From Gammaproteobacteria bacterium (lineage in GTDB: Bacteria > Pseudomonadota > Gammaproteobacteria > Steroidobacterales > Rariloculaceae), in the NCBI GenBank assembly GCA_022820625.1, contig JAJEFE010000077.1:20768-84767 (forward strand): 64,000 bases of DNA, in the 5' to 3' direction. Below are positions 8,533 through 43,767 of the stretch, piece after piece. The notes under the pieces were generated by a model. It was not told the DNA's origin. It searched no databases and worked only from the letters and a program-made list of their open reading frames with translations. Within the stretch, counting starts at the first letter, position 1. Each line of letters starts with the position of its first letter. The position numbers and the translations under genes are program-made.

Positions 8533-9732
8533 TCAGTGGCCCGAAGCCGCGGCGAGTTCCCGTTTCCGCGACAAGGTGGACTCTCTGAGCACCGGCGGCT
8601 GGATGAGTACCAGGGTGACGGCGAGGAGGGCCGTGCACAGGGTGATGACCTGGCCGTACGTGCCGCCGGTCAGGATCGAGGCGGCGACCGCGGGTCCGGC
8701 GGCGATGCCCATCATCTGCATGGCGACCGCGTAGGTCACCTGGCGGCCGCTGCGGTCGAAGCTCGCGTGGGCGCCCAGCAGGTACGGGTGCGCGGTATTC
8801 CACAGCAGGTTGAACAGGCACGCGGCAATGACAAAGCCCATGGCCGTGCGGTAGCTGCCGAGAATCAGCAGGGAGACTATGGACCCGACCAGTGCGATGG
8901 CAAGCGGCCAGGCTCTCCCGTAGCGGCTGCCGAGCACTACGGCGATCAGGGCGCCGGCGATGCCTGCGAACTGCGACAGGGTCAGGGCGTTGGCCACCTG
9001 CTGCTCGGGAATGCCGGCGTCGCGGCCGATCAGCGACATGTAGGTCCAGATGCCGAACGTGGCGACGAAGTAGAGGAACATGGCGCCCAGCGCCATGCCG
9101 CGAAGGCTCCAGGGCAGGGTGAGGCCGTCCTCGTCGACACTGGTTTGTTGTTCGCCGCGGGTGGGCACGTTGCGAACGACCGGGAGCGCAAGACCGGCAA
9201 AGGTCGCGAAGACCAGCAGGAGCCCGACGAGGCCGGCCATTGCAAAGATCGTGGGGATGGCGAAGAAGATTACGGCTGCATAGACCATGAGGGACACGAT
9301 CAGCAGTCCGAAATTCCGGTCCGCGGCGGCCGTCAGGCCGACCACCACGTAGCACAGCGGTACGATGGTGCCGTTGGCTACGCCTGTGCAGAACCGCAGC
9401 ACGCGAAACGTCTGATAGTCGTCCACCACGGTGCAAAGCAGGTTGCCGACAATGAGCACACCCAGTGCGCCGTAGAACAGATAGCGCCAGTTGACGCGGG
9501 TGACGAGAACCATCATCAGGAGGCTCTGCACGGCCTTGCCGGTGTTCTCCGCGGCCGCCACGTAGCCCCCCTGCACGGCGCTGAATCCCAGTTGGCTGAC
9601 CATGCCGTCCACGAAGGCCGGCTGCAGGATCACCGCCTGAGGGCCCACAAGGTGCAGAAACATGAGGGACAGCAGCACCGCCACGCTGTTGACGTTGACT
9701 GTCCGGTCGGGGTTTAACAGGTTCTGCAGCAA
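8533..9732 (-). CDS. MFS transporter
   Basis: 399-aa ORF, highly hydrophobic with about 12 predicted TM segments. Divergent from the P450 operon. Confidence 0.8.
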   Translation of the reverse strand: MLQNLLNPDRTVNVNSVAVLLSLMFLHLVGPQAVILQPAFVDGMVSQLGFSAVQGGYVAAAENTGKAVQSLLMMVLVTRVNWRYLFYGALGVLIVGNLLCTVVDDYQTFRVLRFCTGVANGTIVPLCYVVVGLTAAADRNFGLLIVSLMVYAAVIFFAIPTIFAMAGLVGLLLVFATFAGLALPVVRNVPTRGEQQTSVDEDGLTLPWSLRGMALGAMFLYFVATFGIWTYMSLIGRDAGIPEQQVANALTLSQFAGIAGALIAVVLGSRYGRAWPLAIALVGSIVSLLILGSYRTAMGFVIAACLFNLLWNTAHPYLLGAHASFDRSGRQVTYAVAMQMMGIAAGPAVAASILTGGTYGQVITLCTALLAVTLVLIQPPVLRESTLSRKRELAAASGH

Positions 9733-9789
9733 GTTTTCGGTCCGGTGCGAGGTGCGGGATTGCTATCGGATCCCTTTCACTTTGGTGGA

Positions 9790-9800
9790 TTGTACTACTA
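9790..9800. promoter_or_regulatory. candidate GntR/FadR-type operator TTGTACTACTA
   Basis: Near-palindrome in the divergent MFS/P450 intergenic region. It shares the 8-mer TGTACTAC with the sites at 29717, 46269 and 59064. Confidence 0.45.
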
Positions 9801-9853
9801 TAGTTCGTCCATGCGAGCGGGTTGGTCAAGACTGCGCATCATGAACCGCAATT

Positions 9854-9864
9854 TTGTTGTACAA
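9854..9864. promoter_or_regulatory. candidate GntR/FadR-type operator TTGTTGTACAA
   Basis: TTGT-N3-ACAA, 27 nt upstream of the P450 ATG. The 10-mer TTGTTGTACA is identical to the site at 46332. Confidence 0.4.
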
Positions 9865-9890
9865 AGACGAATGACATCGGGATTACCGGC

Positions 9891-11198
9891 ATGACGGTTC
9901 AGGTAGCGCAGGACCTGCCGACGCTCTCGGAGTTGGCTGATGAGCGATTCGCGCGGGATCCGGGGTTTGCCTACCGGGCCGCCCATGCGCAGCCGGGACC
10001 CGGCCTGTTCCAAATGCCCACCGGCGACGGGCTGATCGCCACGGCCCATCGGACGCTCGCGGACCTGATGCACCATCCCGCCCTGGGCGCGCAGCACCGC
10101 CGGAAACGCCGCTCGGGCGCCGGAGCCAAGGGCGCCCTGGCCCGGATGGACAGCTACAGCCCCTTCTTCATGAACGAGCCCGCGCACACGCCCATCGCGA
10201 TCGCGACCTACCGGCCCATGAGCCCCGCGCGAAACCATCCGCTGATCGAGACGATCACACACGCCGCCGAAAAGGCCCTGGACGACATGCTAGACCGCGG
10301 CGGAGTGGTCGACCTGCGGCGGGACTATGTCCAGGTCATCGTCCGCAACTTCTGGGTCCGGTTCCTGGGACTGCCGGCGGAGGCGGCGCCGCTCCTGGAG
10401 AAATGTTCCGCCGACATATTGCCCATGTTGAAGTTCGAGAATACGCCCGGGGAGGTGGAGACCGCGAACCGCGCCGCGCAGACCATGCGGGATTACGTGG
10501 AGGTGCACCATGGGACGGTCGGGGACCCGCCGGGCGGAGATTCGCCGGGCGGAGAGTCGTCAGGCGGAGATTCAACCGGCGGAGAGTCGGCGGGCGGAGA
10601 TTCAACGGGCGAGACCTTTCTCGATCACTTCGAGTCCGTGCTTGCCGACGGCGACTGGAAGGACTTGCCAAGGAACGCCGCGACGACCGCAGCGGCGATC
10701 ACCTTCGACGGCATCGACTCCGCGGCAGGAGGCGCCGCCAACGTCATCTACACGTGCCTGAGCCACCCCGACCAATGGGCGCTGCTGGTGGAGAACCCGC
10801 GACTGGTCCATGACGCGTGGCGCGAGGCGATACGCCTTGAGCCGCCGTTTTTCGGCCTTCACCGCGGGGCATATAAGGACATCGATTACGATGGAGTTCG
10901 GATCGACGCCGGCACCAATCTTCTGATGGCGTGGGGAGCGGCCAACCGCGACCCCCGGGTCTTCGAGAATCCGCACGTTTTCGATATCCGGCGGCAGAAG
11001 CGGCGCACGCTGGGGTTCGGCGGCGGCCCGCGAATCTGCAAGGGTCGCCACCTGGCCATGCTGGAGGGCGAGATTGCGCTGCGCGTGCTGCTTGAGCGGC
11101 TCGCCTCCATCGAACTGCTGGTGGACGAGCCCGACTGGGGAGGTCCGGGCATGGTTCGCGCCATCCGGTCCATTCCGGCGCGCCTGAGCCCGAAGTGA
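9891..11198 (+). CDS. cytochrome P450
   Basis: Track ORF 9822..11198; ATG at 9891. Heme-thiolate loop FGGGPRICKGRHLA. EXXR (EAIRLEPP). Contains an internal (GG[DE]Sx) repeat insert. Confidence 0.9.
   Translation: MTVQVAQDLPTLSELADERFARDPGFAYRAAHAQPGPGLFQMPTGDGLIATAHRTLADLMHHPALGAQHRRKRRSGAGAKGALARMDSYSPFFMNEPAHTPIAIATYRPMSPARNHPLIETITHAAEKALDDMLDRGGVVDLRRDYVQVIVRNFWVRFLGLPAEAAPLLEKCSADILPMLKFENTPGEVETANRAAQTMRDYVEVHHGTVGDPPGGDSPGGESSGGDSTGGESAGGDSTGETFLDHFESVLADGDWKDLPRNAATTAAAITFDGIDSAAGGAANVIYTCLSHPDQWALLVENPRLVHDAWREAIRLEPPFFGLHRGAYKDIDYDGVRIDAGTNLLMAWGAANRDPRVFENPHVFDIRRQKRRTLGFGGGPRICKGRHLAMLEGEIALRVLLERLASIELLVDEPDWGGPGMVRAIRSIPARLSPK
10530..10613 (+). repeat. in-frame 15-bp tandem repeat (about 5.6 copies) inside the P450 gene
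   Basis: ccgggcggagattcg / ccgggcggagagtcg / tcaggcggagattca / accggcggagagtcg / gcgggcggagattca / acgggcgag, encoding PGGDSPGGESSGGDSTGGESAGGDSTGE. Confidence 0.9.
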
Positions 11199-12817
11199 CA
11201 ATCGGGGACGAATCGATGCACTTCCTTGAAGAGCCCACCGTGATCCGGAATCCCAATCCTCGCGTGCCGCTGGCCGCGGTGGTCTGTTTCCGCCCCAGCG
11301 AGCCCGGCCGAACGCGAATTGACATCCGCGATCCGGACCGCCAGTGGAGCGTGGAGTTCGGCCGCGACCGGTCGCCGGCCGAGGGGCTGCCCATTCTCGG
11401 CATGCGCCCCGACCGAGACCACGAACTTCGCGTGACGCTGATCGCCGAATCCGGCGCCGAAGTGACGGCGCCCGCACCGCTGCACTACCGTACGCCCCCC
11501 TTACCGGGTGGCTACGACTTTCCCCATGGCATCCGCATCAACCGGGACGACCGCAGCCGCCGCGAGCCGGGCGTCCTGCTGCTTTCCGTGCATCGCATAC
11601 CCAGGGGGCGGTACAACGAGTGGTCGCACGAGACAGTGGACTTCGGTTTCGGGTGGGGGATCATCGTCGCCCTGGACGCCGACAACGAAGTTTGCTGGTA
11701 CTACGAGACCGACAGCTTTCTGGAAGGCATCGACCGGCTCCGGAACGGCAATCTGATCTTCCACCGCTGGGATTTCCGCACCTTCGAGATCGACATGCTC
11801 GGCAATACCGCCAACCAGTGGTATGCGGCTCGCCGGCCCCAGGGCCCGGTCTCCGGGGCCATTGCCGTGGACACCGCCGGATTGCATCACCAGCCGAAAG
11901 AGATGCCCAACGGCAATTTCCTGATCTTCACCGCGTCATCCCGGGAAATCGACGACTACTACACGGACCAGTACAACCTGGAGGCGCCCCGGCGCAGGGC
12001 CATCGTGGTCGGCGACGGCGTGGCCGAGATGGACCGCAGCTCCGGCGAGCTGCTCTGGCGCTGGTCCGCGTTCGACCGCCTCGATCCGATGCGGATCGGC
12101 TATGGAGGTACGGACGACTACTGGGCCATGCGCGGCTTTGAAGGAGCGCTGGACTGGACCCACGGCAACGGCGCCGGCTATGACGCCCGGGACGACTCGG
12201 TAGTGGTTTCGCTACGGCACCAGGATGCCATCGTCAAGGTCGACCGAGCCAGCGGCAACATCAAGTGGATACTGGGCGAGCCGACCGGTTGGGGCGAACT
12301 CGGCGACAGGGTGCTGAAGCCCGTCAACCTGGCACGCTGGCCCTATCACGGACACAACCCTCGCCTCACCCCGGAAGGCACCATCGTGTTCTTCGACAAC
12401 GGAACCTGGGGCGCCCGCCCGCCGGAGCCGCCGGTCCCGCCCGAGAAGAATTTCAGCCGCGGCGTTGAGTACCGCGTCGACGAAGACGCCATGACCGTCG
12501 AGGAGGTCTGGGCGTCGGATACGCGCCATTCCCCAACATCCCGGCATTCCCCCGACATGGGTGACGCTCACAGGCTGCCCCAGACCGGCAACATGCTCGT
12601 GATCTGGGCGCACTGCGCGGCACCCGACACCGGACAGGTCTACAGCAACAGCGACACGAGCGGCACATTCTTCAACGAGTTCCACATGCCCTCCCTGCTG
12701 CGGGAATACGCCCGAAACGGCTCATCGGAGGTCGTATTCGAACTCGAACTGTACGATCCGGACGAAACCATCAATTGGGGCATCTACGGTGGGTTGATGA
12801 TTCCGACTCTCTATTAG
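11195..12817 (+). CDS. aryl-sulfate sulfotransferase (ASST)-like beta-propeller protein, no signal peptide
   Basis: The GTG at 11195 overlaps the P450 stop (GTGA); an alternative ATG lies at 11216. Motifs LHHQPKEMPNGN, DWTHGNG and HGHNPR are shared with the paralogs at 46455 and 59125. The N-terminus starts directly at the mature-domain position of those paralogs. Confidence 0.8.
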   Translation: MTIGDESMHFLEEPTVIRNPNPRVPLAAVVCFRPSEPGRTRIDIRDPDRQWSVEFGRDRSPAEGLPILGMRPDRDHELRVTLIAESGAEVTAPAPLHYRTPPLPGGYDFPHGIRINRDDRSRREPGVLLLSVHRIPRGRYNEWSHETVDFGFGWGIIVALDADNEVCWYYETDSFLEGIDRLRNGNLIFHRWDFRTFEIDMLGNTANQWYAARRPQGPVSGAIAVDTAGLHHQPKEMPNGNFLIFTASSREIDDYYTDQYNLEAPRRRAIVVGDGVAEMDRSSGELLWRWSAFDRLDPMRIGYGGTDDYWAMRGFEGALDWTHGNGAGYDARDDSVVVSLRHQDAIVKVDRASGNIKWILGEPTGWGELGDRVLKPVNLARWPYHGHNPRLTPEGTIVFFDNGTWGARPPEPPVPPEKNFSRGVEYRVDEDAMTVEEVWASDTRHSPTSRHSPDMGDAHRLPQTGNMLVIWAHCAAPDTGQVYSNSDTSGTFFNEFHMPSLLREYARNGSSEVVFELELYDPDETINWGIYGGLMIPTLY

Positions 12818-12829
12818 TGGAGGTTTGCA

Positions 12830-14716
12830 ATGAACATCGCCAATAGTCAGATAAAGCGCCATTCCTTCGCAGCTGTATTGGTTGCAGTGCTCGGCGTGAT
12901 TTGCACGTTCCCGCTGACAGTCCGTGCGCAGGGCAACAATATTGCAGGTCTGGAAGCAGGGACAGCCTCAACGGAACCACCCGACTACGATGCGTACGAG
13001 TGGTCCCTTCCCCGCGTTCCTGTGCTGGAGGCGCTGGACCGGGACGGGGACGGGCAGTTGGATGCCCTTGAAATAGCGGCCGCTCAGGAGTCACTCATGC
13101 CTCTTGACGCCAACGGTGACCAGTTGCTGGACAGGCGTGAACTTGGCGGCCCGGGCCCGATCCCGGGCTGGCTTCGCCTGCAAACGCCCATCAAGGTCAT
13201 CGACAAGGACGGTGACGATCAAATTGACTTTGAGGAACTGGAACAAGCCACCGCTGCGCTTCGCCGCGCCGATCTGGACGGCGACTGGGTACTGAGCAAT
13301 GCGGAACTGTACGATCGACGTGCCGTGCCCCCATCTCCGGAGGGCCTGGCGAACGTCAGGCAATTGGTCGCGATGCTGGGTCGATCGGATGTAGTCTATC
13401 CGATACTGCCCGGCGAGGACCCCCGCCAGTATGAGGCCTACATGCTCTACACGGAGTCAGGATCCGCCGGCGATACCACCATTAACGCCGGAACCAAGCT
13501 GCTGGACCCGCAGGGCAACCTGGTTCATGAATGGCCATCCGAACATGGGCCGGAAGGCGTCCATTCTCATCTCCTCCCGGATGGCAATCTCCTTCGGCAA
13601 GCGGGCATTGGGGACTTCTTCGATATGCGATCCTTTCCGGTCGCGGCCCACGGAGTCCTGGAAATCGTGGCGCCGAACGGTGAGGTTCTTTGGGAGTTCA
13701 GTCACTGTATCGAGAACAACATGTGCCTGCATCATGACTTCGCTCCCATGCCAAACGGCAACGTTCTCGTAACGGAGTACAACGCGGTACCCAGAGTGGA
13801 ACTCGAATTCCACGGTCGTACGCCGCGACGGAATGAAAGGGACGTACGCTGGTTCGAACGAATTCTGGAATTGAAACCGAACCTGGAGGATGGTTCGACC
13901 GAGATCGTGTGGATGTGGTCAGATCTTGATCATATGGTCCAGGACCAATTCCCGAACCGGCCAAACTATGGCGACATACGAGAGAACCACGATCGATTCG
14001 ACATCAACTTTCCCGGTAATGCACAGAGGCACTTCCACGCGAATGGCATCGATTACGAGCCTGAGCGGGACTTGATCGTATTCAGCAGTGTCAATCACAA
14101 CGAAATCTATATCATCGACCACAGCACCACGACAGCGGAGGCAAGAACAGGCCAGGGCGGGCGTTGCGGAAAGGGCGGGAGGATACTCTTCCGATTCGGC
14201 AACCGGGCCGTGTATGGCTACGGCGACGCTGAAAGTCAGATTCTTGGCGCTCAGCATGATCCGCACTTCATAAAGGCCGACAATCTCCCCGGGCCCGGCG
14301 ACCTGACCATTCATAACAATCGGGCTGGAACCATTCCCGGGGCTGAAGCCATTGGCGCATTTGGTCTCGGTATGTCGTATTCGTCCATCGTCGAAATTGC
14401 ATTGCCGTACGACGATAACGGCTGCTTCGAACTCGCGGAGAATGGCGACCCGTACCAGACGGAAATCGTCTGGGAGTACATCGAGGAACCGCTCGGCGCC
14501 TGGCACGGCCCATTTGCCGGAGCGGCCACCCGCGTTCCAAACGGTAATACCGTCGTCATGAATTCACAGACCAAGAGAGTGTTCGAGGTCACCCCGCAAG
14601 GTGAGCGAGTTCTGGACTTTCAATTGCCCGAAACCGGTCGACCGCAAAAGCTGCAAAAGCTCAGTCTCGATTATCCGGGACTGGTGTCGTTGCTGGAAAG
14701 CCTTGAGGCGGAGTGA
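12830..14716 (+). CDS. secreted EF-hand (x4) + arylsulfotransferase-like beta-propeller fusion protein
   Basis: GGAGG RBS lies 7 nt upstream. Signal peptide AAVLVAVLGVICTFPLTVRAQ. EF-hand loops DRDGDGQLDALE, DANGDQLLDRRE, DKDGDDQIDFEE and DLDGDWVLSNAE. The C-terminal part shares HHDF, HANGIDY, PNGNT.V and FEVTP.G with 21594..23189. Confidence 0.75.
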   Translation: MNIANSQIKRHSFAAVLVAVLGVICTFPLTVRAQGNNIAGLEAGTASTEPPDYDAYEWSLPRVPVLEALDRDGDGQLDALEIAAAQESLMPLDANGDQLLDRRELGGPGPIPGWLRLQTPIKVIDKDGDDQIDFEELEQATAALRRADLDGDWVLSNAELYDRRAVPPSPEGLANVRQLVAMLGRSDVVYPILPGEDPRQYEAYMLYTESGSAGDTTINAGTKLLDPQGNLVHEWPSEHGPEGVHSHLLPDGNLLRQAGIGDFFDMRSFPVAAHGVLEIVAPNGEVLWEFSHCIENNMCLHHDFAPMPNGNVLVTEYNAVPRVELEFHGRTPRRNERDVRWFERILELKPNLEDGSTEIVWMWSDLDHMVQDQFPNRPNYGDIRENHDRFDINFPGNAQRHFHANGIDYEPERDLIVFSSVNHNEIYIIDHSTTTAEARTGQGGRCGKGGRILFRFGNRAVYGYGDAESQILGAQHDPHFIKADNLPGPGDLTIHNNRAGTIPGAEAIGAFGLGMSYSSIVEIALPYDDNGCFELAENGDPYQTEIVWEYIEEPLGAWHGPFAGAATRVPNGNTVVMNSQTKRVFEVTPQGERVLDFQLPETGRPQKLQKLSLDYPGLVSLLESLEAE

Positions 14717-14839
14717 CCGGGGAGTCCGCTACTCAGTGCGTCTTTTGATCGGTGTTGATTGAATGGCTTCCGATTCGTCTCCTCGTTCAGGTGGCCGTGG
14801 CAGTTTAGTTGCGCATCGATGGCCAGATACGGCGCGGCG

Positions 14840-15850
14840 TCAGGCCGAGTTCAGGCCGGCGCGGTCGATTCCGCCGAGCAACTGCTCGCCGGTCTCGCTG
14901 TCCACGATCAGGTCGCCCACCCGGTCGAGGCGGCCGGGATCCTCCACGGCCCTCAACCGGGCTTCCAGCCGCCGCCCGGTGTCGGCGCCGAAACGCCGCG
15001 CGGCCAGCCGCACGAGCGCTTCGCGGCGGCCCTCGGCGATCGCTTCGCGGCGGCCTTCCGCCAACAACTCCTGCCGGTGGCGCTTCAGCCAGCGCTCGTT
15101 GTTCCTCTGCAGTATCGATTGTTCGGCCATCAGTTCCTCCAATTCTCTCTCGCGCTCCGGGTTCCAATCCGGCGGACGAGACTCCGGCGCAGTCTCGTGG
15201 AACCAGTCCAGGTAGCACTGGAACAGGCGCGCTTCGTCCTCGTCCCCGAAGTCCAGCCATCCGCGCACTTCGCCGAGAAGCCGGATGGCGTCGGCATACG
15301 ACTCCGCGAACACCAGCCGCGCCAAGGCCGCCATGCGGTTGCCACGCTTGGGATATTGCGTCGCGGGGTCGCGCAAATCAAGCCGTGCGTAGCGACGACC
15401 GGTCAGCCACGGCAGCGGATGGCCGACCGGCATCCGCACCAGGCCGCTCAGGTCGTCCGGGGAACGCCACGGCCGATGTCCCGTGTACACCACGACGACC
15501 AGCGCCGGCGGGAACCGTCCATCGGCCCCGCGCGCTTCGCCGCCGAGCGATTCGTAGAGCAGCCCGATTCGCGTCGTCGCCCGAGCCGGCATGCGCCGGT
15601 CGGGCGTGGACTGGTTCTCAATCAGAATGATCGCCGAGTCACCGCCCCTGCCTTGGGCAAGCCAGCACAGATCCGCGATGCGCTTTTCGCCGCCCGCGCC
15701 GATCAACTCGGTGGGCATCTCGCGAAGGCCGGAGGCGTCCACCGCCGCGGTCCACCCCGCGGGCAGCAGCGCGAGCAGGTCCCGCACCACGCGCGGGCGG
15801 CTCAGAATGAGCTTCATGAGGCGGTCCTGATTGTCCCGCAGCGTGTCCAT
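14840..15850 (-). CDS. Rpn-family recombination-promoting nuclease / putative transposase (YhgA-like PD-(D/E)XK) with C-terminal DUF4351-like domain
   Basis: 336 aa. N-terminal DRLMKLILSRPRVVRDLL ... ADLCWL ... ILIENQSTPDRRMPAR pattern typical of the YhgA/Rpn family. C-terminal AARRFGADTGRRLEARL... Confidence 0.75.
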   Translation of the reverse strand: MDTLRDNQDRLMKLILSRPRVVRDLLALLPAGWTAAVDASGLREMPTELIGAGGEKRIADLCWLAQGRGGDSAIILIENQSTPDRRMPARATTRIGLLYESLGGEARGADGRFPPALVVVVYTGHRPWRSPDDLSGLVRMPVGHPLPWLTGRRYARLDLRDPATQYPKRGNRMAALARLVFAESYADAIRLLGEVRGWLDFGDEDEARLFQCYLDWFHETAPESRPPDWNPERERELEELMAEQSILQRNNERWLKRHRQELLAEGRREAIAEGRREALVRLAARRFGADTGRRLEARLRAVEDPGRLDRVGDLIVDSETGEQLLGGIDRAGLNSA

Positions 15851-15931
15851 CGTCGATCATCGCCCTGTCGTGCGCATCCAGGGGATACGATAAGCCCTTC
15901 CAGGAAGCCGAAAAATCGGTAAATCCGGTGA

Positions 15932-16387
15932 CTTTGCGCGGAAACTGACGAAATTCCGGCGGGGCCGGAGCACAAGAGGCTGCGGGAGGCGTTCGCGCAG
16001 TGGTTGGGGCAGTCTTGGGCCGAAGAGTACGATTCGGAGGCGGGCGCAGACGAAGCGTTGCTCGGCGAGTTGGACCGATTGGAGGCAGCGGGAGAGGTAG
16101 AAGCGATGGGGTCACTGACGGCGGAAAGGTGGAGAGAGCGCCAGCGGAAGAAAGAGGCGCAGATCCTTGCGCAGGGACGTGCGGAAGGCCTTGAATTTCA
16201 TCGTCGCCAGCTGGCGAGTCAGGCGGCACGCCGGTTCGGCGCAGACACTGGCGAACGCATGTCGGTATTGCTGGCGGGCGTATCGGAGCAGGAGCGCCTG
16301 GCGGCAGTGGGCGATGCAATTATAGATTGCGGCACAGGCGCGGAATTGCTTGCGGCAGCGCAACGCATCGTCGGCGCAGCGAATTGA
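15932..16387 (+). pseudogene. 5'-truncated Rpn-family remnant (DUF4351-like C-terminal domain only)
   Basis: The open frame begins just after a stop at 15929..15931. It encodes ...RLREAFAQWLGQSW...QAARRFGADTGERMSVLLAGVSEQERLAAVGDAIIDCGTGAELLAA. This parallels the C-terminus of the 14840..15850 product, but no nuclease domain is present. Confidence 0.55.
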
Positions 16388-16804: not shown

Positions 16805-17116
16805 TCAACCGCCATGCGCTACGCGTTCCCGGCGTAGCGCCATGGCGTCCCGCAGTTCGTCGGTTGGTTCGGCGGGGTTGTCAAGCGCGGAGAGCACAAC
16901 GACACGGGCTTCGGCCGACAGAACTGTTCGCTCATGATTCTCGATCGTCACTCTCGCACGCTCAAGCGCCGCGCTGGTCACGAACGTTGTTTCGTCAACG
17001 CCCAAGAGCGCTGCAGCTTGCTGAAGCTGCGCCTTGACGTGCGGTTTGGTGCGCTGTTCCATTCGGGCGGTTTTCGGCTCCTCGATGTCAGCCGCCCAAT
17101 CGCGAAATTTAAACAT
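16805..17116 (-). CDS. DUF1778 / TacA-like type II antitoxin, no adjacent GNAT toxin
   Basis: These are the last 103 codons of track ORF 16805..17950; ATG at 17116. Sequence ...RTKPHVKAQLQQAAALLGVDETTFVTSAALERARVTIENHERTVLSAEARVVVLSALDNPAEP is typical of the RHH-type DUF1778 family. Confidence 0.7.
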   Translation of the reverse strand: MFKFRDWAADIEEPKTARMEQRTKPHVKAQLQQAAALLGVDETTFVTSAALERARVTIENHERTVLSAEARVVVLSALDNPAEPTDELRDAMALRRERVAHGG

Positions 17117-17199
17117 TGACCTGTCTCCATTGCTGAATTCAAACGTATCGCAGATCGCTGCACACTGTAGGGCCGAAATGGATACAGCGAACCTGATTG

Positions 17200-18630
17200 T
17201 TACCGACCAAGCGCTACACGTGTCATTGCGCGGTCTGCTGCCGCCAGTGCCTGCTCTATATCGTTCTCGGTGTGATTGGGCGAGATGAAGATCCGCCCGC
17301 CGCCGCCCATGAGTACGCCTTCCTCGCCCCAGAGCGCTCGAAAGCGCTCGAATTCGGCCGCATCGCGCTCCGCGAGATCCTCGGGGGCATAAGCAGCGGA
17401 CTTGTCGACGAAGTCGAAGTAGATGACGCCCAGGGGGCCCTGGAGCAGGCAGGGACGGTCGTGATCTGCGCAGATGGCAGCCAGTCCTTCGCTGAGTTGC
17501 CGCTGGCGTGCCTCCACGACGCGATAGCAGGCGCCGTCGTTCGCGGCCAGCGTGTCGATGGTGTGGATCGCCGCGGCGAGGCTGGGCGGGAAGGAGTTGA
17601 ATGTGCCCGGACCGAGTACGCGGTTGTCCCTGAGGAGTTGAAGAATTCCTGCCCGGCCGGCCACCGCGCTCAGGGGGAAGCCGCCTGCCAGGGCCTTGCC
17701 GAATGTGGCCAGATCGGGTGTCACTCCCAGCGCTGACTGGGCGCCGCCCAGCGCCACGCGAAATCCCGTGATGACCTCGTCGAAGCACAGCAGCACGCCA
17801 TGCTTGCTGCACAGTTCCCGGACGCCTTCGAGGTAGCCTGACCGGGGCGGGCAGCAACCGTAGTTGCATAGGATAGGCTCCATCAGGACCAACGCGATGT
17901 GGTCGCTGTGCGCTTGTAGGGTCGCTTCGAAGGCTGCCAGGTCGTTCCACGGGATCATCAGCGAGTTGCCGATCGCGCCGGGGGCGAGTCCTTCCGACAA
18001 GTAGGGGTCGGCGTCGCTTGTGACCGCCGCGGGCAGTTCGACCGGCTCGGCCCGGCCGCGGTTGCCGCCGACGCGACTGCCGTCATCGCAATCTCCGCAG
18101 GCATGGTCGCTGCGGTCGCTGCCGCCGGTCGCATCGCGGGGGGCGCCGGGAACGTTTCCAGGCACCCCGCCAAACACACCATCAAGCCAGCCATGATAAT
18201 GGCCGAAGAATCGCAGCAGGTAGGGACGCCCGGAGTACGCACGAGCCAGGCGGACGGCCAGTTGCACGGCCTCGGAACCGGAGATCCCGAACCGCACCCA
18301 CTCCGCGCAGGGGACGTGTTCGACGATCCGCTCGGCAAGTTCCACCTCCAGCACGCACTGCGACGCGCCTGAACTGATGGCCGGCAAGCGGTCCAGTTGG
18401 CGCCGGATCGCATCCTTGTAAGCGGCGTCACCGTAGCCCCAGATCGCGGGACCCATGGAGAGGATGAAGTCGATGTACCGGTTGCCGTCCGCATCGACGT
18501 AATGGAGTCCCTCCGCCCGTTCCAGGAACAGCGGTTTGGCGCCGGGCACGGCGCGAAAATTGCTCTGCCGGCCGGGCATGACACGCTCGGCCCGCTCCGC
18601 CAGGGTCCTTGTATGGGGTCCGACCGTCAT
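17200..18630 (-). CDS. class III (PLP) aminotransferase, glutamate-1-semialdehyde aminomutase-like
   Basis: 476 aa. Motifs YVDADGNRYIDF, GISGSEAVQLAVRLARAY, CFDEVITGFR and TFGKALAGG (PLP-Lys region). Confidence 0.85.
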   Translation of the reverse strand: MTVGPHTRTLAERAERVMPGRQSNFRAVPGAKPLFLERAEGLHYVDADGNRYIDFILSMGPAIWGYGDAAYKDAIRRQLDRLPAISSGASQCVLEVELAERIVEHVPCAEWVRFGISGSEAVQLAVRLARAYSGRPYLLRFFGHYHGWLDGVFGGVPGNVPGAPRDATGGSDRSDHACGDCDDGSRVGGNRGRAEPVELPAAVTSDADPYLSEGLAPGAIGNSLMIPWNDLAAFEATLQAHSDHIALVLMEPILCNYGCCPPRSGYLEGVRELCSKHGVLLCFDEVITGFRVALGGAQSALGVTPDLATFGKALAGGFPLSAVAGRAGILQLLRDNRVLGPGTFNSFPPSLAAAIHTIDTLAANDGACYRVVEARQRQLSEGLAAICADHDRPCLLQGPLGVIYFDFVDKSAAYAPEDLAERDAAEFERFRALWGEEGVLMGGGGRIFISPNHTENDIEQALAAADRAMTRVALGR

Positions 18631-18642
18631 GTGTCTACAACT

Positions 18643-20127
18643 TCAATCCCCGTAAACGAACCGCTCGATCTCGCCATGGATTCTCCTGCGGGTCTCGTCC
18701 GAGGGCGGTGCCGAGAAGCGCGACACGATGATCGTCACGACGAAGTTGACTCCAAGCGACCAGACGGCTTCATGGATGCCCAGCGGCTGGTAGATCACCA
18801 CCCGCGTGACATACAGAACAAACAGGCCGGCGATAATCCCCGCAATGACGCCGTTGCGCGTGGTGACGCGGCGGCCGGGATAGCACACGCCCAGGATGGC
18901 CGGCATGAGTTGCAGCGCGCCGGCGCCGGAGAGCGTGATCAGCGTCACCAGGAAATCGAAGGTCGACACGGAGAGCACGTAACCGACGGCCAGCAGGACG
19001 AGCACGACGCCACGGCCGAACAGTACGTAGTGCGCCTGGCTCCGTTCGGGAGCAACGAAGCGCTGGTAGATGTCACGGGTCAGCACCGTCATGTTGGAAT
19101 GCAGGATCGAGTCCAGTGTGGACATGGCCGCGGCAGTCGCGCCGGCCAGGATCAGTCCCGTAAGCCATGCGGGCGCGTATTGAAACAGAAGCTCCGGAAA
19201 GACCCGGTCCGCAATTTCCAGGTCCGGCAGCACCAGTGCGCCGCCGAGGCCCACCATTGCCGCCGGAATGTACAGCGTCATCAGGTAGATGGGCGTGGTT
19301 GCGCCCAGCAACTTGAGGGTTCTGGCCGACGCTGCGGTGTAGAAGCGGATCATCATGTGGGGCTGGAACACGATGCCGAACGAAAGCGCGATGGTCATGC
19401 CGAACCAGACGCCCGGCGTGAAGAGTCCTTCCGGCCCCGGCAGGGTCAGCAGGTCGGGGCGTTCGGTGGCGAGGCGCTGCCAGAGCTCGACGGGGCCGCC
19501 GAAGAGTTTGTAGACCAGCACGAGGCTGCCGACCCATACGGCCACGTACATCCACACGCCCTGGATCACGTCGGTCCAGTAGACGGCCCGTAACCCACCG
19601 GCGATGAGGTACGCTGCGGCGACGATCAGGAGAATCAGCGTTCCCACTTCGAACGACACCCGCCCGCCGGACGCCACCGATAGGATGTAGCCCAGCCCCT
19701 GGGACTGAACCTGGATGTAGAGGATGGTGAAAACCACCGAAACCGCGGCGGTCAGCACGCGAACCGCGTCGCTCTCGTAGAAATCCGCCAGCATGTCCGC
19801 CGGGGTGATGTAGCCGAAGCGTTTGCCCAGCGCCCAGATGCGCGTGCCCAGCGTGTAGGTGATGACGCCGACGAGAATCGTCCAGGTGCCTGCCATCCAG
19901 AAGCCGATCCCGTGGGTATAGAAAAAGCCGCCCGAACCGAGAAACGCGAACGCCGAGTGAAAAGTCGCCACCACCGTCAGGTAAAGGACGATGACCCCGG
20001 CCTGGCGGCCGTAGAGCAGGAAATCCTCCATGTTGACCGAGAGCCGCCGGTTGGCGACCGCGCCGATGACGACGGTTGCCAGCAGGTAGAGAAAGATGAG
20101 GCTGGTGGCGACGACCCAGGGTTCCAT
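18643..20127 (-). CDS. sodium:solute symporter (SSS) family transporter
   Basis: The ATG at 20127 (MEPWVVATSLIFLYLL...) overlaps the stop of the upstream small ORF by 1 nt. Polytopic and hydrophobic with an SSS-type N-terminus. The track ORF extends to 20280. Confidence 0.85.
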   Translation of the reverse strand: MEPWVVATSLIFLYLLATVVIGAVANRRLSVNMEDFLLYGRQAGVIVLYLTVVATFHSAFAFLGSGGFFYTHGIGFWMAGTWTILVGVITYTLGTRIWALGKRFGYITPADMLADFYESDAVRVLTAAVSVVFTILYIQVQSQGLGYILSVASGGRVSFEVGTLILLIVAAAYLIAGGLRAVYWTDVIQGVWMYVAVWVGSLVLVYKLFGGPVELWQRLATERPDLLTLPGPEGLFTPGVWFGMTIALSFGIVFQPHMMIRFYTAASARTLKLLGATTPIYLMTLYIPAAMVGLGGALVLPDLEIADRVFPELLFQYAPAWLTGLILAGATAAAMSTLDSILHSNMTVLTRDIYQRFVAPERSQAHYVLFGRGVVLVLLAVGYVLSVSTFDFLVTLITLSGAGALQLMPAILGVCYPGRRVTTRNGVIAGIIAGLFVLYVTRVVIYQPLGIHEAVWSLGVNFVVTIIVSRFSAPPSDETRRRIHGEIERFVYGD

Positions 20128-20351
20128 CAGACCTTCTTTCTCATTGTCCAGATCAGGACGGCGATAGTGACGACGTAGACGGCCAGGAGATACACAAACA
20201 GAAAGGGCATTCCAAAGACCCAGGGCTCGATCCGGTTGACGAGTCCGTGAACCGCGGGGGGTTGGGACAGCGCCATGCATATGACCAGCAGGACTGTGGC
20301 GATCCGGCCGGCACGTGTTCGAGGCAGATAATGTGAACGGGGTGCTTGCAC
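20127..20351 (-). CDS. small membrane protein (DUF3311-like SSS accessory subunit)
   Basis: Translationally coupled upstream of the SSS gene. Sequence ...IEPWVFGMPFLFVYLLAVYVVTIAVLIW. The real start may be the ATG at 20276. Confidence 0.5.
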   Translation of the reverse strand: MQAPRSHYLPRTRAGRIATVLLVICMALSQPPAVHGLVNRIEPWVFGMPFLFVYLLAVYVVTIAVLIWTMRKKV

Positions 20352-21593: not shown

Positions 21594-23189
21594 ATGAGCG
21601 TCGTTGCCCGCCAGACCCCGTACCCGGTCGGCGCGTTGCCGGTTGCCATGACGGTCGTCACGTTGGCGGGTGTCGTGAAGTTTCACAGCCCCATGGCTTA
21701 TGAGGCGTTCCAGGGTCCGACCGAACTCATCTACCACGACCCCGAGCGAGCGTACCAGGGCTATACGATGTTCACGCCCTCGCGGGGCCGGAACACGTAT
21801 CTCATCGACATGAACGGGGAGGTGGTACACACCTGGCCCATCCCCGCGAGTTGGCGCGATCCGGAGATTCGGGAGAATGCCCGGCTTCTGGACGACGGGA
21901 TGCTGGCCCGCAGCGAGACTGTCGCAGACGGCTCGACACCCGGGACCTATCAGCTCGTCGACTGGGACGGAGCGGTCGTTTGGGAGTACGTGTCCGGCCG
22001 CGAGGATCTTTCCGGTCATCACGACTTCCGGTTCATCCGCAATCCGAAGCTGGGTCAACGCACGCTCATTTATTCCGCCACCCGGGAGACGCCCCACGAG
22101 AAAATACTCGCGCTGGGCGCCGATCCCGCGTTTCGGGAGAGCTACGACTCGCGTCCCGACGGCCTGGTCGAGGTCGACATGGACGGCAATGTCGTCTGGG
22201 AGTGGAACATCAGCGACCACGTCGTGCAGGATTTCGATCCGAACCTGCCCGGCCATGGTGTCGTCAGCGAACACCCCGGCAAGCTGGACATCAACTTCGG
22301 GCCGGGCGTCAGCGGCAACTGGATTCATATGAACGGATGGGACTTCAACGAGGTTCTGGACCACGTGGCGATCAACAATTCGCGCATGAGCGAATTCTAC
22401 GTCGTCGATCACGGCGCGACGTTCGTTCCCGGCGATCCGCAGCGCAGCCGCGAACTGGCGGCAAGCGATGCCGGTGACTTCATCTACAGGTGGGGCAACC
22501 CTTGCGTATCCGATACCGGCGAATGCCCGTCGATGACCGCCGAGGGGTTTACCACCAGCAACGGCCACCAGCAGGTTTTCTTCAGCCACGATATCCAGTG
22601 GATCGACGACGGGGACTTCGGTGCGCTGGACGGGCCTGTTCCCGGTGAGGGCCACTTCCTGATCTTCAACAACGGCGCGCGGCAGCCGGGCCCCACGTTT
22701 TCGTCGGTGATCGAGATCGACCCCTATGACGGACCGATGGAAAACGGCATCTACGTCCCCGCTGCCGTCGCCGGTTACGAGCCCATGCCGGTGGGCGGCG
22801 GCATGAGCAGGCAAACCCAGAATGTTTCCAGGCAGGTGGTCTGGCGCTTCCACGGAGTCTCGCCCAACTCGTTCTACAGCCCGTACATCTCGGGAGCACA
22901 GCGGCTGCCCAACGGCAATACGCTGGTCTGTTCAGGCGCCCACGGTCACATCTTCGAGGTCACCCCGGAAGGCAACGTCGTCTGGGAGTACATCAATCCC
23001 GTGGGCGACAGGCTGGAGAACGACCGGGGCATCTATCGCACGATGACCGACAGAGCAGGCGAGGAATTCAACTCGATTTTCAAGTGTCAGCGCTATGCTC
23101 CCGATTATCCTGGCCTCAATGGCAAGGATCTGACGCCCAGGGGGAAGATCACGGAGTATTTTTCCGAAGCCGTTGAATTGAAGCCGTAG
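21594..23189 (+). CDS. arylsulfotransferase-like beta-propeller protein (second subtype)
   Basis: 531 aa. Shares HHDF, IHMNGWDF, RLPNGNTLV and FEVTPEGNVVWEY with the C-terminal part of 12830..14716. Confidence 0.65.
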   Translation: MSVVARQTPYPVGALPVAMTVVTLAGVVKFHSPMAYEAFQGPTELIYHDPERAYQGYTMFTPSRGRNTYLIDMNGEVVHTWPIPASWRDPEIRENARLLDDGMLARSETVADGSTPGTYQLVDWDGAVVWEYVSGREDLSGHHDFRFIRNPKLGQRTLIYSATRETPHEKILALGADPAFRESYDSRPDGLVEVDMDGNVVWEWNISDHVVQDFDPNLPGHGVVSEHPGKLDINFGPGVSGNWIHMNGWDFNEVLDHVAINNSRMSEFYVVDHGATFVPGDPQRSRELAASDAGDFIYRWGNPCVSDTGECPSMTAEGFTTSNGHQQVFFSHDIQWIDDGDFGALDGPVPGEGHFLIFNNGARQPGPTFSSVIEIDPYDGPMENGIYVPAAVAGYEPMPVGGGMSRQTQNVSRQVVWRFHGVSPNSFYSPYISGAQRLPNGNTLVCSGAHGHIFEVTPEGNVVWEYINPVGDRLENDRGIYRTMTDRAGEEFNSIFKCQRYAPDYPGLNGKDLTPRGKITEYFSEAVELKP

Positions 23190-32085: not shown

Positions 32086-32748
32086 GTGGCCACAGCGAAA
32101 GAAATAGCCTTCGAACGGATACGGAACTCGATCTTTTCGGGCAAATTCCAGCCCGGATACCAACTCAAGGAAGAGGAGTTGGCGAATTCACTGAACGTCA
32201 GCCGCACGCCGGTGCGTGAAGCGCTGCGGATGCTGGCGGACCAGGGCTTGATCGAAATCCGCTCCAACCGGCGTTCCTACGTGGCCGACGTCACCGAGGC
32301 GCAGTTCGAGGAACTCATGGATATTCTCTCGTTCCTCGAGAGCTACAGTGCAGCCCGGGCCGCGCGGCGAATCTCGAAGGAAGCGCTGGAGGAACTCAGG
32401 CAACTGAACGCCGAGATCGAAGAGGCCGTCGATGACGATCCGCGATTCCTGCAGCTTAACTCCCGGTTTCATCGGGCCATACACCGCGCGGCGGGCAGTC
32501 ACAAGCTCTACGAACTGATCGACCGGATCATCGACTTCCACCACAATCTCTACTTCAAGTTCGGCCAGATACCGGCCAGGCACAACCCGCTCAGCGTGGT
32601 CGAGCACCGGAACATCATCGAGGCGCTGGAGGACGGGGACGAGGAATACGCGGCGCTGATGATGAAGGCACACAACGAATCGGTCAGGCGTGCATTTCGG
32701 CAATATTGGCGCGAACGCGGCGAACTTTCGGACGCGAAGAGCACTTGA
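32086..32748 (+). CDS. GntR-family transcriptional regulator, FadR subfamily (FCD domain)
   Basis: GTG at 32086 after GAAAGGAA. Winged HTH ...YQLKEEELANSLNVSRTPVREALRMLADQGLIEI. All-helical C-terminal domain with the H/H pattern (RFHRAIH, EHRNIIEAL). Confidence 0.9.
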   Translation: MATAKEIAFERIRNSIFSGKFQPGYQLKEEELANSLNVSRTPVREALRMLADQGLIEIRSNRRSYVADVTEAQFEELMDILSFLESYSAARAARRISKEALEELRQLNAEIEEAVDDDPRFLQLNSRFHRAIHRAAGSHKLYELIDRIIDFHHNLYFKFGQIPARHNPLSVVEHRNIIEALEDGDEEYAALMMKAHNESVRRAFRQYWRERGELSDAKST

Positions 32749-32750
32749 CG

Positions 32751-34385
32751 GTGACAGGCCCGCGGCGGTCCGGGGCGACTTTGTCAACGCCCAATTTTCT
32801 GTTCTTCATCACCGACCAGCAGCGCTGGGATCATGTCGGCTATGCCGGCAATGAGATCGTGCAGACCCCGAACATCGATCGTATCGCCACGGGCGGTTCG
32901 TGGCTGTCGCGATTCTACGTATCGTCGCCGACTTGCATGAGCAATCGCGCGACATTCATGACCGGGCGCATTCCACGGGTCAACGGCGTGCGTTACAACG
33001 GGATTCCGCTGGATCTGGATTCCGTCACCTTCGTCGATCTGCTCCTCGCGGCCGGCTATCGCACGGCGCTTGTCGGCAAGAGTCACCTGCAGGGCATGAC
33101 GTCGGAGTCGGCCAAGGTTCCGCGTGAAGTGTACCCGGACGGGCTCAGGCTGCCGCCCGACGCATTGGCCGAGGCGCGTCGGACACCCTACACACGCGAA
33201 GACTATGAGTGGGAGATGAGCCAGGAGTGGGTCCGCCCCGGTCACCCGGACAACATCCGCACGCCGTTCTACGGTTTCGAGGATGTAGCCTTCTGCCTTG
33301 GGCACGGCGACCTGGTCACCGGACACTACTCCGCGTGGCTCAGAAAAAAGGCGCCCGGTCTTGACTTTCAGCCGGGGCTTGCAGGTGCGCGGGCCGTCAG
33401 CGAGGTGCGGGCGGCCCAGGTCTACCAGCCGGCCGTTCCGGAAGATCTCTATCCGACCCGATTTGTCCAGGAGGAGACCGTCGCGTGGCTCGAGGGCCAC
33501 GCCGAGCGCGGAGAGGGCAGGCCCTTCTTCGTGCAATGTTCGTTCCCGGACCCGCACCACCCGTTCACACCGCCGGGCCGTTACTACGGCATGTACGACG
33601 CGGATGAGGTTGAACTTCCACCGTCGTTCCATACACCCACGCGCGATGCAACGCCGCCGCTTGCAAGGCTCTGGGACGAGTACGAGCGCGGTACCGAAAC
33701 GACACGCTGGACGTATCCCTTCGTCACCGGCGAACGGCGGGCGCGCGACATGCTGGCCAAGACCTACGGCCAGATCACGATGATCGACGATGCCGTCGGC
33801 GCGGTACTCGATACGCTGAATCGAGTGGGCCTGGCCGAAAATACCGTGATCTGTTTCCTGTCGGATCACGGCGAGTATCTCGGCGATCACGGCCTGATGC
33901 TCAAGGGGCCGATGCAGTACCAGAGCATCGTGCGCACACCCTTTGCCTGGCGCGATCCGGACCCGGCGTACAACCGCGGGCATCTCGAAGAAATGGGATC
34001 AATGCTGGATCTCGCCCGAACCGTGCTGAGCCGGGCGGGGCTCCAACCGTACAACGGCGTGCAGGGCGTCGATCTCTGCCCGCTGCTCAGGGGCGAGTCG
34101 GCGATGCGCGACGAGGTCCTGGTGGAGTACACCACCCAGTACCCTTACCTCGGGTTCGACGACCTGGTAACGGTCTCGACACTGATTGACCGTCAATGGC
34201 GGATTTCAGTCTGGCAGAACCGTGACTGGGGCGAACTTTATGACCTCTCGAACGACCCCCACGAACTGACGAACCTCTGGGACGATCCGGAGTCGGCAAC
34301 GGTCAAGGAATCGTTGTTGATCCGTCTCGTCCACTCGCTGCAGAACCACGCCGATACCTCGCCGTATCCTCTTTCGGTGTCCTGA
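32751..34385 (+). CDS. sulfatase-family protein (arylsulfatase-like), no signal peptide, variant CMSNR active-site motif
   Basis: Motifs PNFLFFITDQQRWD and SSPTCMSNRATFMTGR. Start uncertain: GTG 32751, TTG 32745 or TTG 32706. Immediately follows the GntR stop. Confidence 0.85.
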   Translation: MTGPRRSGATLSTPNFLFFITDQQRWDHVGYAGNEIVQTPNIDRIATGGSWLSRFYVSSPTCMSNRATFMTGRIPRVNGVRYNGIPLDLDSVTFVDLLLAAGYRTALVGKSHLQGMTSESAKVPREVYPDGLRLPPDALAEARRTPYTREDYEWEMSQEWVRPGHPDNIRTPFYGFEDVAFCLGHGDLVTGHYSAWLRKKAPGLDFQPGLAGARAVSEVRAAQVYQPAVPEDLYPTRFVQEETVAWLEGHAERGEGRPFFVQCSFPDPHHPFTPPGRYYGMYDADEVELPPSFHTPTRDATPPLARLWDEYERGTETTRWTYPFVTGERRARDMLAKTYGQITMIDDAVGAVLDTLNRVGLAENTVICFLSDHGEYLGDHGLMLKGPMQYQSIVRTPFAWRDPDPAYNRGHLEEMGSMLDLARTVLSRAGLQPYNGVQGVDLCPLLRGESAMRDEVLVEYTTQYPYLGFDDLVTVSTLIDRQWRISVWQNRDWGELYDLSNDPHELTNLWDDPESATVKESLLIRLVHSLQNHADTSPYPLSVS

Positions 34386-34405
34386 CCGGGCAGGGCCATT
34401 CGGGA

Positions 34406-43200: not shown

Positions 43201-43767
43201 GGCCCCTGGCGCGGCCGTAGCAGAGGCCAGGGTCAATTGTGTGCCGGTCCGGGCGTCAGTCTCCGAAACAGGCGAGGCGACCGAAACACGATGGGCCCGG
43301 GTGCGCTCGATCAGGTCGCCGATCATGGCATCAAGCCCCAGGGACATGCCGTCGTTGGGGTGGTAGATGCGTTCCACCCCGTACGCCATGAGTTCGTCGA
43401 TCTCGTCCGGCGTGATCGTTCCCCCGCCGCCGCCGAAGACGCGGATGTGTCCCGCGCCAAACTCCTCGAGCCGGTCGATCATGTAACGGAAGAACTCCAT
43501 GTGGCCGCCCTGATAGGAGCTCACGGCGATGCCGTCGGCGTCCTCCTGGATCGCGGCGCGCACGATCTCGTCCACGCCGCGATTGTGGCCGAGATGGATG
43601 ACCTCGACGCCATGGTTCTGAATCAGCCGCCGCATGATGTTGATCGCCGCGTCATGCCCGTCGAACAGGGAAGCCGCAGTGATGAAGCGAAGCGGCAGGG
43701 TGGTATCGCCCCCCAGGGAATCCGGAAGTTTTCCGGTTGCGGAATCAGGTCTGGGTACCGCGATCAT
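40240..43767 (-). CDS. icmF: fused isobutyryl-CoA mutase (B12-binding domain + MeaB-like GTPase + mutase catalytic domain)
   Basis: 1175 aa. N-terminal B12 domain ([13 protein letters not shown], DxHxxG-type). P-loop [13 protein letters not shown]-terminal methylmalonyl-CoA-mutase-like barrel. Confidence 0.85.

Follow-up and report, generated by a model that had tools for sequence, protein, structure and literature searches.

The P450 gene and its downstream neighbor

We analyzed a 64,000-nt stretch of a Rariloculaceae genome (contig JAJEFE010000077.1 of assembly GCA_022820625.1, positions 20,768 to 84,767; hereafter the window), in which a cytochrome P450 gene is followed on the same strand by a gene of the aryl-sulfate sulfotransferase (ASST) family. 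The ASST product has no signal peptide, and we call it ASSTcyt. The window's genome, G000, is a 95%-complete metagenome-assembled genome (MAG), and its contig is labelled C118 here; the other genomes of the genus that carry ASSTcyt are G001, G006, G011, G013 and G015. An earlier interpretation made from the letters alone (the sequence-only reading) had drawn attention to this gene pair and proposed that its products act in sequence.

The P450 gene lies where that reading placed it, at 9891–11198 (+), from ATG 9891 to TGA 11196–11198, and encodes 435 amino acids (aa). The match to PF00067 scores 64.8 bits (cut-off 22.8) and covers residues 309–403 only; TIGR04515 aligns residues 39–406 with a score under its cut-off. 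P450 motifs include the FxxGxRxCxG Cys-ligand loop, EXXR and the I-helix acid-alcohol pair. All three are present along with the profile match, as FGGGPRICKG, EAIR and GIDS, and are invariant in 8 P450 orthologs down to 52% identity. Among solved structures, CYP199A2 (2FR7, E 1e-30) and CYP199A4 (4DNZ, E 1e-25) score best; these enzymes hydroxylate or O-demethylate para-substituted benzoates. The main aligned stretch is residues 260–434. The window P450 shares the three motifs with these enzymes but differs from them in a divergent N-terminal half, an inserted variable GG(D/E)S repeat, and Ala268/Ala269 at the positions of CYP199A2 Arg246/Ser247. We take Arg246/Ser247 to be the residues that bind carboxylate in CYP199A2, a pair that is thus absent here. 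The repeat corresponds to a 15-nt tandem repeat at 10531–10611 (+; 5.4 copies, TRF) encoding GG(D/E)Sx units. It occurs only in G000, G001, G013 and G015, with differing copy number, and is absent from more distant orthologs; in a contig from metagenome run X10, the same region of the gene is 30 bases longer, with the addition at 10513. A structure model of the P450 from an 8-row alignment reached a predicted local distance difference test score (pLDDT) of 36.9, too low for a structural search.

The start of ASSTcyt

According to the sequence-only reading, the P450 stop codon overlaps a GTG start codon of the ASST gene. In the window DNA, the ASST-family open reading frame (ORF) does open at GTG 11195, overlapping TGA 11196–11198, and it ends at 12817; the peptide quoted in that reading, MHFLEEPTVIRNPNP..., starts at ATG 11216, 21 nt past the GTG. 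The GTG has no counterpart in the orthologs of G001 and G015, where the P450 stop codon is TAA. In contrast, ATG-CAY-TTC following a purine-rich stretch is kept in all six orthologous loci, and an MH(F/L) N-terminus is found in 14/14 listed members of a protein cluster of ≥90% identity drawn from many independent assemblies. Since ATG 11216 is kept in the six orthologs and the listed cluster members while GTG 11195 is lost in two, comparison of these sequences identifies ATG 11216 as the conserved functional start; GTG 11195 was rejected as a codon that is not conserved among orthologs. The two genes are 17 nt apart and do not overlap. The spacer (11199–11215, +) contains a Shine-Dalgarno-like GGGGA at 11204–11208. 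Across the six orthologous loci the spacers measure 17, 17, 17, 17, 23 (G011) and 133 nt (G006), and in G006 an in-frame TGA stands 8 codons ahead of the ATG.

Independent assemblies agree with the window across this junction. In metagenome runs X2 and X3, single contigs span 9700–13000 with 15 substitutions and zero gaps, and two further studies provide gap-free junction contigs (X5 record 24, 9703–11925; X10 record 4, 10962–11844). The junction is thus bridged by contigs of three sponge-metagenome studies, and an assembly error at this point is unlikely. All sequence runs that share large parts of the window are sponge metagenomes, and no RNA dataset was among the listed runs that match it.

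A sigma-70-like promoter match (TTCACT-17-TATAGT; 9/12 consensus matches, and a consensus match only) was found at 9776–9804 (+), in the intergenic region that separates the P450 gene from the divergent gene upstream. The consensus scan detected no second promoter-like site between the major facilitator superfamily (MFS) gene on the far side of this region and the end of the ASSTcyt gene, including the P450–ASSTcyt gap. Because the two genes lie on the same strand, 17 nt apart, and the sole promoter-like site is upstream of the P450 gene, ASSTcyt is probably co-transcribed with the P450.

ASSTcyt is a leaderless member of the ASST family

The ASSTcyt gene (11216–12817, +) encodes 533 aa. The protein matches PF05935 at 202.1 bits (cut-off 24.2) and PF14269 at 47.4 bits (cut-off 27). 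PF17425, an N-terminal domain, scores 18.2 bits, under its cut-off of 24.2; the same profile scores 33 bits, above the cut-off, in an ortholog at the metagenomic locus L034. Leaders were called from alignment position relative to a conserved NPNP motif, combined with hydrophobicity, and not with a signal-peptide predictor. In paralogs this motif marks the start of the mature domain, and ASSTcyt has only 11 residues ahead of it. The in-frame upstream stretch is free of hydrophobic segments, with GTG 11195 as its first possible start codon, and the other upstream frames encode the P450 C-terminus or lack a start. As read from its sequence, then, ASSTcyt has no signal peptide, as had been proposed, and is probably cytoplasmic. 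It lacks the export signal of characterized proteobacterial ASSTs, which is a feature of those enzymes and not of the family profile. A signal peptide hidden by a frameshift or assembly error, which the sequence-only reading had named as a finding that would overturn its view, was not found and is ruled out by the six agreeing orthologs and the gap-free contigs from three studies.

The catalytic residues of the family are conserved. His225, His316, Arg334 and His380 of ASSTcyt align with His252, His356, Arg374 and His436 of the E. coli ASST (3ELQ); the chain numbering agrees with 4P04, named in the PDB titles as the H436N mutant entry. From the E. coli structure papers we take His436 to be the sulfurylated catalytic histidine, and presume the roles of His252, His356 and Arg374 on the same basis. 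The three histidines are invariant in 124/124 aligned homologs, and the Arg334 position is Arg in 103, Lys in 20 and Pro in 1. An AlphaFold (AF2) model of ASSTcyt, built from an alignment of 14 clade members, has a pLDDT of 86 and a predicted template modeling score of 0.87. In a Foldseek search with this model, the nine best matches were E. coli ASST chains (TM score 0.68–0.71; 0.70 for 3ELQ), followed by Cpz4 (9KF4, TM score 0.53), and the model contains the N-terminal Ig-like domain and beta-propeller of the ASST fold. By profile, catalytic residues and predicted fold, ASSTcyt is a member of the ASST family.

ASSTcyt resembles the periplasmic ASST of E. coli CFT073 (3ELQ, 3ETS, 4P04) in its PF05935 match, its combination of beta-sandwich and beta-propeller and its catalytic set. 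With this fold and catalytic set shared, a ping-pong mechanism via a sulfo-histidine, independent of 3'-phosphoadenosine-5'-phosphosulfate (PAPS), is expected for ASSTcyt, which is predicted to move sulfuryl groups from aryl sulfates to phenols with no need for PAPS. Unlike the E. coli enzyme, to which it is ~20% identical, ASSTcyt has no signal peptide, lies next to a P450 gene in a candidate operon and lacks the Cys418–Cys424 loop. The loop with this disulfide falls in an alignment gap, ASSTcyt has 3 Cys in total, and no dsbL/dsbI-type partner genes were found among the scanned ASSTcyt neighbors. The essential disulfide and DsbL/DsbI partners of the E. coli system therefore have no equivalent here; in the available text of a 2026 review of ASSTs, a disulfide is confirmed for the E. 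coli enzyme only (PMC13426309).

Cpz4, the ASST-type enzyme of caprazamycin biosynthesis (9KF4, 9KF6), has the ASST fold and, in the same text, an established role in intracellular metabolism instead of periplasmic scavenging (PMC13426309). ASSTcyt would resemble it in acting inside the cell. The sequence match between Cpz4 and ASSTcyt is weak (E 1e-7), and Cpz4 belongs to an antibiotic gene cluster, unlike ASSTcyt. That cluster reportedly holds its own donor-making PAPS-dependent sulfotransferase and a type III polyketide synthase (PKS). A two-step system of the Cpz4 type is not evident here: the 95%-complete genome has no match to PF02797 (type III PKS), and none of its five PAPS-type sulfotransferase genes (PF13469) is on C118. 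On another contig of G000 (C149), a different P450 (matched at 36350–36841) lies ~6 kb from a PAPS-type Sulfotransfer_3 gene (43129–43701).

Leaderless ASSTs across the family

To place ASSTcyt among its relatives, we used its best 120 homologs. The first 15 of these (55–95% identity, 519–564 aa) are of leaderless size, and most of the remaining listed homologs (≤50% identity) are 26–60 residues longer. In the alignment, 43/124 rows start ≤20 residues ahead of the NPNP motif. Three of the 43 looked like truncated gene calls and were removed to leave 121 rows, giving a leaderless share of 40/121, or about a third, among close homologs. In a FastTree phylogeny of the 121 rows, with seven rows of ambiguous N-terminus left unlabelled, ASSTcyt belongs to a 16-row clade (SH-like support 100) nested among leader-bearing clades; 15 of its rows are leaderless, and the remaining one has an unusual N-terminal extension. 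The leader label changes at least 7 times on this tree, with 4 changes forced by starred branches.

Leaderless ASSTs are already known in print and are not new as such. The accessible text of a study of Sutterella reports ASSTs with and without signal peptides, with 1/17 Sutterella ASSTs lacking one; SwASST11 of Sutterella wadsworthensis, together with a statement there citing Baek et al., gives a precedent for ASSTs without a predicted signal peptide (PMC10932419). Those printed cases are single sequences without clade, context or function, in contrast to the supported clade and conserved neighborhood described here, and on our tree the leaderless state recurs in at least four to seven places. 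The view that bacterial ASSTs are periplasmic, on which the sequence-only reading had relied, is thus too strong in light of the leaderless enzymes (PMC10932419) and of biosynthetic Cpz4, at least as far as the available text of the review describes it (PMC13426309). Its other part, a PAPS-independent mechanism, is expected to apply to ASSTcyt as well.

Distribution of the P450–ASSTcyt pair

We surveyed the ASSTcyt clade and the orthologs of the window P450, as opposed to any ASST beside any P450 across bacteria. With an ortholog threshold of E ≤ 1e-160, ASSTcyt is present in 6/17 genomes of the genus and in 6/85 genomes of the family (Ca. Rariloculaceae), that is, in 1/14 genera. All six genus genomes with ASSTcyt have a P450 ortholog directly upstream of it, within 17–23 nt in five of them, at ASST identities down to 83%. 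The adjacency is thus not peculiar to one genome; had it been, this would have counted against the sequence-only reading. In two genus genomes, G016 and G010, the P450 sits between molybdoenzyme genes and a Na+/solute symporter gene; in G012, only the last ~95 P450 codons remain.

Beyond the genus, a scan with two clade-specific peptide patterns, using one genome per GTDB species, returned 10 loci: five genus loci, one leader-bearing relative (44% identity) and four clade members (62–66% identity). The four are from one unclassified gammaproteobacterial MAG and three Paracoccaceae MAGs. The distribution of ASSTcyt is accessory and patchy, with relatives in another bacterial class. No P450 was found in the visible flanks of the four outside members, where the upstream view of L029 is 179 nt only; these 179 nt end a different gene 13 nt ahead of the ASST start. 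In two of the Paracoccaceae MAG loci, L032 and L033, the ASST match is in pieces across different frames, which may reflect pseudogenes or assembly errors.

A metagenome scan yielded one informative contig, L034, with a 72% ASSTcyt ortholog. In three further lineages, ASSTcyt homologs (69–72% identity) and P450 homologs (46–49%) were matched on equal-sized contigs: P0013 and P0184 (1,064,377 nt), P0016 and P0180 (131,490 nt), and P0015/P0191 with P0185/P0194 (81,334 nt and 81,718 nt). The two homologs likely share those contigs. A search for protein fusions, a weak type of evidence for coupling, returned two longer relatives, neither with a P450 domain. In agreement with the sequence-only reading, no P450–ASST operon is described in the literature covered by a full-text search without supplementary files, and none of the ASST papers returned deals with ASSTs of sponge symbionts.

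Partner genes and neighborhood

The MFS transporter gene (8533–9732, −; PF07690, 63 bits) is divergent from the P450 gene, as had been stated. Its orthologs are at the locus in G001, G006, G013 and G015; the G011 ortholog lies at a distance of 8 kb. In a search directed at family and transport direction, NCBIfam matches were far under cut-off, no PDB relative was found, Atlas clusters were generic and no exporter signature appeared. On the other side of the pair is a class-III aminotransferase gene (17200–18630, −; PF00202) that resembles glutamate-1-semialdehyde aminomutase (GSAM) and D-phenylglycine aminotransferase. In the PDB its product matches GSAM most closely (E 2e-69), ahead of D-phenylglycine aminotransferase (E 4e-52) and beta-phenylalanine aminotransferase (E 2e-38). 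Orthologs of the MFS transporter and the aminotransferase were not found in G016, G010 and G012 (95–100% complete), so that the two genes co-vary with ASSTcyt: they are present in 6/6 genomes with ASSTcyt and 0/3 without it. A sodium:solute symporter gene (18643–20280, −; PF00474) forms the border of this island, and it adjoins the P450 gene in G016 and G010, which are without the ASST, MFS and aminotransferase genes.

Directly after ASSTcyt, starting 12 nt downstream, is a gene for an exported protein that combines EF-hands with a beta-propeller distantly like that of ASSTs (12830–14716, +; hydrophobic N-terminal leader, EF-hand matches, PF05935 at 33.6 bits). It most likely belongs to the P450–ASSTcyt transcript in this genome. 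The gene is adjacent to ASSTcyt in G015 too, and is not adjacent in G011 and G006. Insertions of 6–7 kb follow ASSTcyt in G013, where the EF-hand gene is found beyond the insert, and in G001, where it is unmatched in the locus read. The G013 insert holds genes for a LysR regulator, a glutathione S-transferase, a sulfatase and a TonB-dependent receptor; in G011, a LysR gene adjoins ASSTcyt. The stretch that follows ASSTcyt appears to be a hot spot for insertions. Between 14759 and 17200 the window has no clear genes: ORFs 14759–15922 (+) and 15639–16319 (−) overlap each other and have no family match, and ORF 16805–17950 (−) has a TacA-like antitoxin domain at its C-terminal end. At the corresponding place, G001 has PemK/MazF-like (toxin-antitoxin-like) and NYN-domain genes.

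Outside the genus, ASSTcyt relatives have other neighbors. On L034, ASSTcyt is followed by an opposite-strand short-chain dehydrogenase/reductase gene, an aminotransferase gene (54% identical to that of the window) and an MFS gene (58%), 2.3 kb from the ASST gene; the start of the MFS gene overlaps the aminotransferase stop codon. Flanking genes encode alanine-racemase-like, class-IV aminotransferase, amidohydrolase_2 and vicinal oxygen chelate proteins. A second aminotransferase–MFS pair is found elsewhere in the G001 genome. In the Paracoccaceae loci, LysR and ASSTcyt genes are accompanied by those for a tripartite importer (TctCBA), amidohydrolase_2, an aldehyde dehydrogenase, an Fe-alcohol dehydrogenase and a second ASST that also lacks a leader. 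In one Paracoccaceae MAG locus (L030), the second leaderless ASST is encoded at 13852–15570 and is 40% identical; the two leaderless ASST genes flank those of the TctCBA importer and amidohydrolase_2. At L029, genes for a three-subunit molybdenum hydroxylase of the xanthine dehydrogenase/CO dehydrogenase (XDH/CODH) type are downstream of the ASST gene.

Paralogs and other genes of the window

Two ASST paralogs are encoded in the window, at 46455–48167 (−; 42–44% identical), adjacent to a TonB-dependent receptor gene, and at 59125–60879 (+; 43–44% identical). The second ORF opens at GTG 59095, and the Met ahead of the leader is residue 11. Both paralogs have hydrophobic N-terminal leaders of ~27–40 residues before the NPNP motif, and the peptide LSFTSPPRMEQNPNPAVPLAAV, with which the sequence-only reading had compared ASSTcyt, comes right after the leader of the second. 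We agree with that reading that both are secreted, with the mature domain following the leader. A third paralog, encoded on contig C84, begins with a leader of the lipoprotein type. Besides the EF-hand gene, the window has another distant ASST-like gene (21594–23189), which adjoins DUF6152 and DUF3604 genes; the same trio is found in G006 (L019).

The remaining window genes are catabolic in character too: a sulfatase gene grouped with those for an MFS transporter and a GntR regulator, and genes for TonB receptors, dehydrogenases and components of 2-oxoacid dehydrogenases. No PKS, nonribosomal peptide synthetase (NRPS), terpene or other core biosynthetic genes were found among the scanned window genes. 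The GntR regulator, sulfatase (32706–34385) and MFS transporter genes stand in a row at 32086–35725. The sulfatase has no hydrophobic leader before the domain start and may be cytoplasmic. Its active-site stretch is C-M-S-N-R, compared with C-x-P-x-R, which we take to be the usual sulfatase motif.

A candidate island for sulfated phenolics

We propose that ASSTcyt is an active, cytoplasmic, PAPS-independent aryl-sulfate sulfotransferase within an accessory island that imports and breaks down sulfated phenolics, and we assign this interpretation a probability of roughly 0.45. In one genus of Ca. Rariloculaceae associated with sponges, the ASSTcyt gene would have come to lie directly behind a P450 gene that was already there. 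The resulting island would consist of the MFS transporter, P450, ASSTcyt and class-III aminotransferase genes beside the Na+/solute symporter gene, with the P450 and ASSTcyt transcribed from the promoter region at ~9776–9804. It would import sulfated phenolics, possibly amino-bearing, for breakdown. His380 would accept the sulfuryl group of an aryl sulfate brought into the cell and pass it to another phenol in a ping-pong reaction, so that a phenolic hydroxyl is freed or masked. The P450 may hydroxylate or O-demethylate the same aromatic scaffold, and the aminotransferase may strip the amine from the aromatic compound. Within this proposal, the missing leader, the catalytic residues and fold, the adjacency kept within the genus and the co-variation with the MFS and aminotransferase genes are observed; action of ASSTcyt in the cytoplasm, its co-transcription with the P450, import as opposed to export, the class of substrate and a share of the P450 in the same pathway are points that we infer.

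Several observations weigh against this proposal. The P450 ortholog is full-length, with all motifs kept, and without any ASST in G016 and G010, so its link to ASSTcyt may be historical only. No ortholog of the window P450 was found in the four outside clade-member genomes (best match 36% over the C-terminal part), and the L034 ortholog has no P450 gene in the 3.7 kb before it or the 4 kb after it. Partners of the clade vary by lineage (MFS plus aminotransferase, TctCBA, XDH-type hydroxylase), with no single pathway conserved. The direction of MFS transport is not readable from sequence, and the assignment of ASSTcyt to the cytoplasm depends on the absence of a recognizable leader. Finally, net desulfation by a transferase requires an acceptor, and none was identified.

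These points bear on a second explanation, in which an ASST/MFS/aminotransferase module was inserted beside an older P450 gene and the two are co-transcribed while serving unrelated pathways. The solitary, intact P450 genes of G016 and G010 and the remnant in G012 are consistent with such a history, as are the ASSTcyt orthologs outside the genus that lack the window P450, the insertion hot spot downstream of ASSTcyt (G001, G013) and the 133-nt spacer of G006. It is a serious rival. However, all 6 genus copies of ASSTcyt directly follow the P450 gene, 5 of them within 17–23 nt and down to 83% identity, and equal-sized contigs suggest that homologs of both genes co-reside in three further lineages. 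On balance, we consider a purely historical adjacency somewhat unlikely.

The sequence-only reading favored a scheme in which the P450 hydroxylates an aromatic substrate, the cytoplasmic ASST sulfates the new phenol and the MFS transporter exports the ester, which would amount to a detoxification pathway of phase I, phase II and efflux. Gene order, the 17-nt spacer and the divergent MFS gene agree with such a scheme, and phenol sulfation by ASSTs is described in the available review text (PMC13426309). However, an ASST requires an aryl-sulfate donor, and the contig carries no genes for making one. All five PAPS-type sulfotransferase genes of the genome map to other contigs, and a search for a type III PKS was negative. 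ASSTcyt relatives adjoin binding-protein-dependent importers (TctCBA), LysR and catabolic enzymes, and the pairing of MFS and aminotransferase genes on L034 and again in G001 fits amine uptake better than efflux. Combined with the missing exporter signature and the P450 orthologs that are intact without any ASST in two genomes, this makes the export scheme poorly supported and, in our judgment, improbable. The same reading also suggested a biosynthetic tailoring pair that decorates a secondary metabolite. The precedent is Cpz4, the second-best structural match (9KF4, TM score 0.53), for which the same partial text documents biosynthetic use of an ASST-type enzyme (PMC13426309). ASSTcyt and Cpz4 match weakly in sequence (E 1e-7), none of the scanned window genes is a PKS, NRPS, terpene or other core gene, no type III PKS was found in the genome and the contig is without a PAPS-type sulfotransferase. 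With transporters, regulators and catabolic enzymes as the neighbors, a tailoring role is very improbable.

Implications for ASST physiology

The pairing of P450 and ASST genes is narrow, being documented in one genus, and any functional meaning is tentative. A broader proposal would be that bacteria widely process imported aryl sulfates through a PAPS-independent sulfuryl transfer in the cytoplasm, a step that has so far gone unrecognized and that is wired in sponge symbionts to a P450 that makes or consumes phenols. We raise it because about a third of the ASST subfamily is leaderless and occurs in uptake and catabolic clusters, and we regard it as doubtful at this stage. According to the available text of the 2026 review, what bacterial ASSTs do physiologically, and on which natural substrates, is poorly understood, and the word "cytoplasm" does not occur in that text (PMC13426309). 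If the proposal were true, it would provide the first defined physiological role for ASSTs outside antibiotic biosynthesis. A disulfide-free cytoplasmic ASST may also be simpler to produce for biocatalysis than the periplasmic enzymes. The locus suggests that the substrates are likely to be sulfated phenolics found in sponges, and the leaderless clade, with its conserved uptake and catabolic neighbors and its genus-level P450, offers a testable context for ASST physiology.

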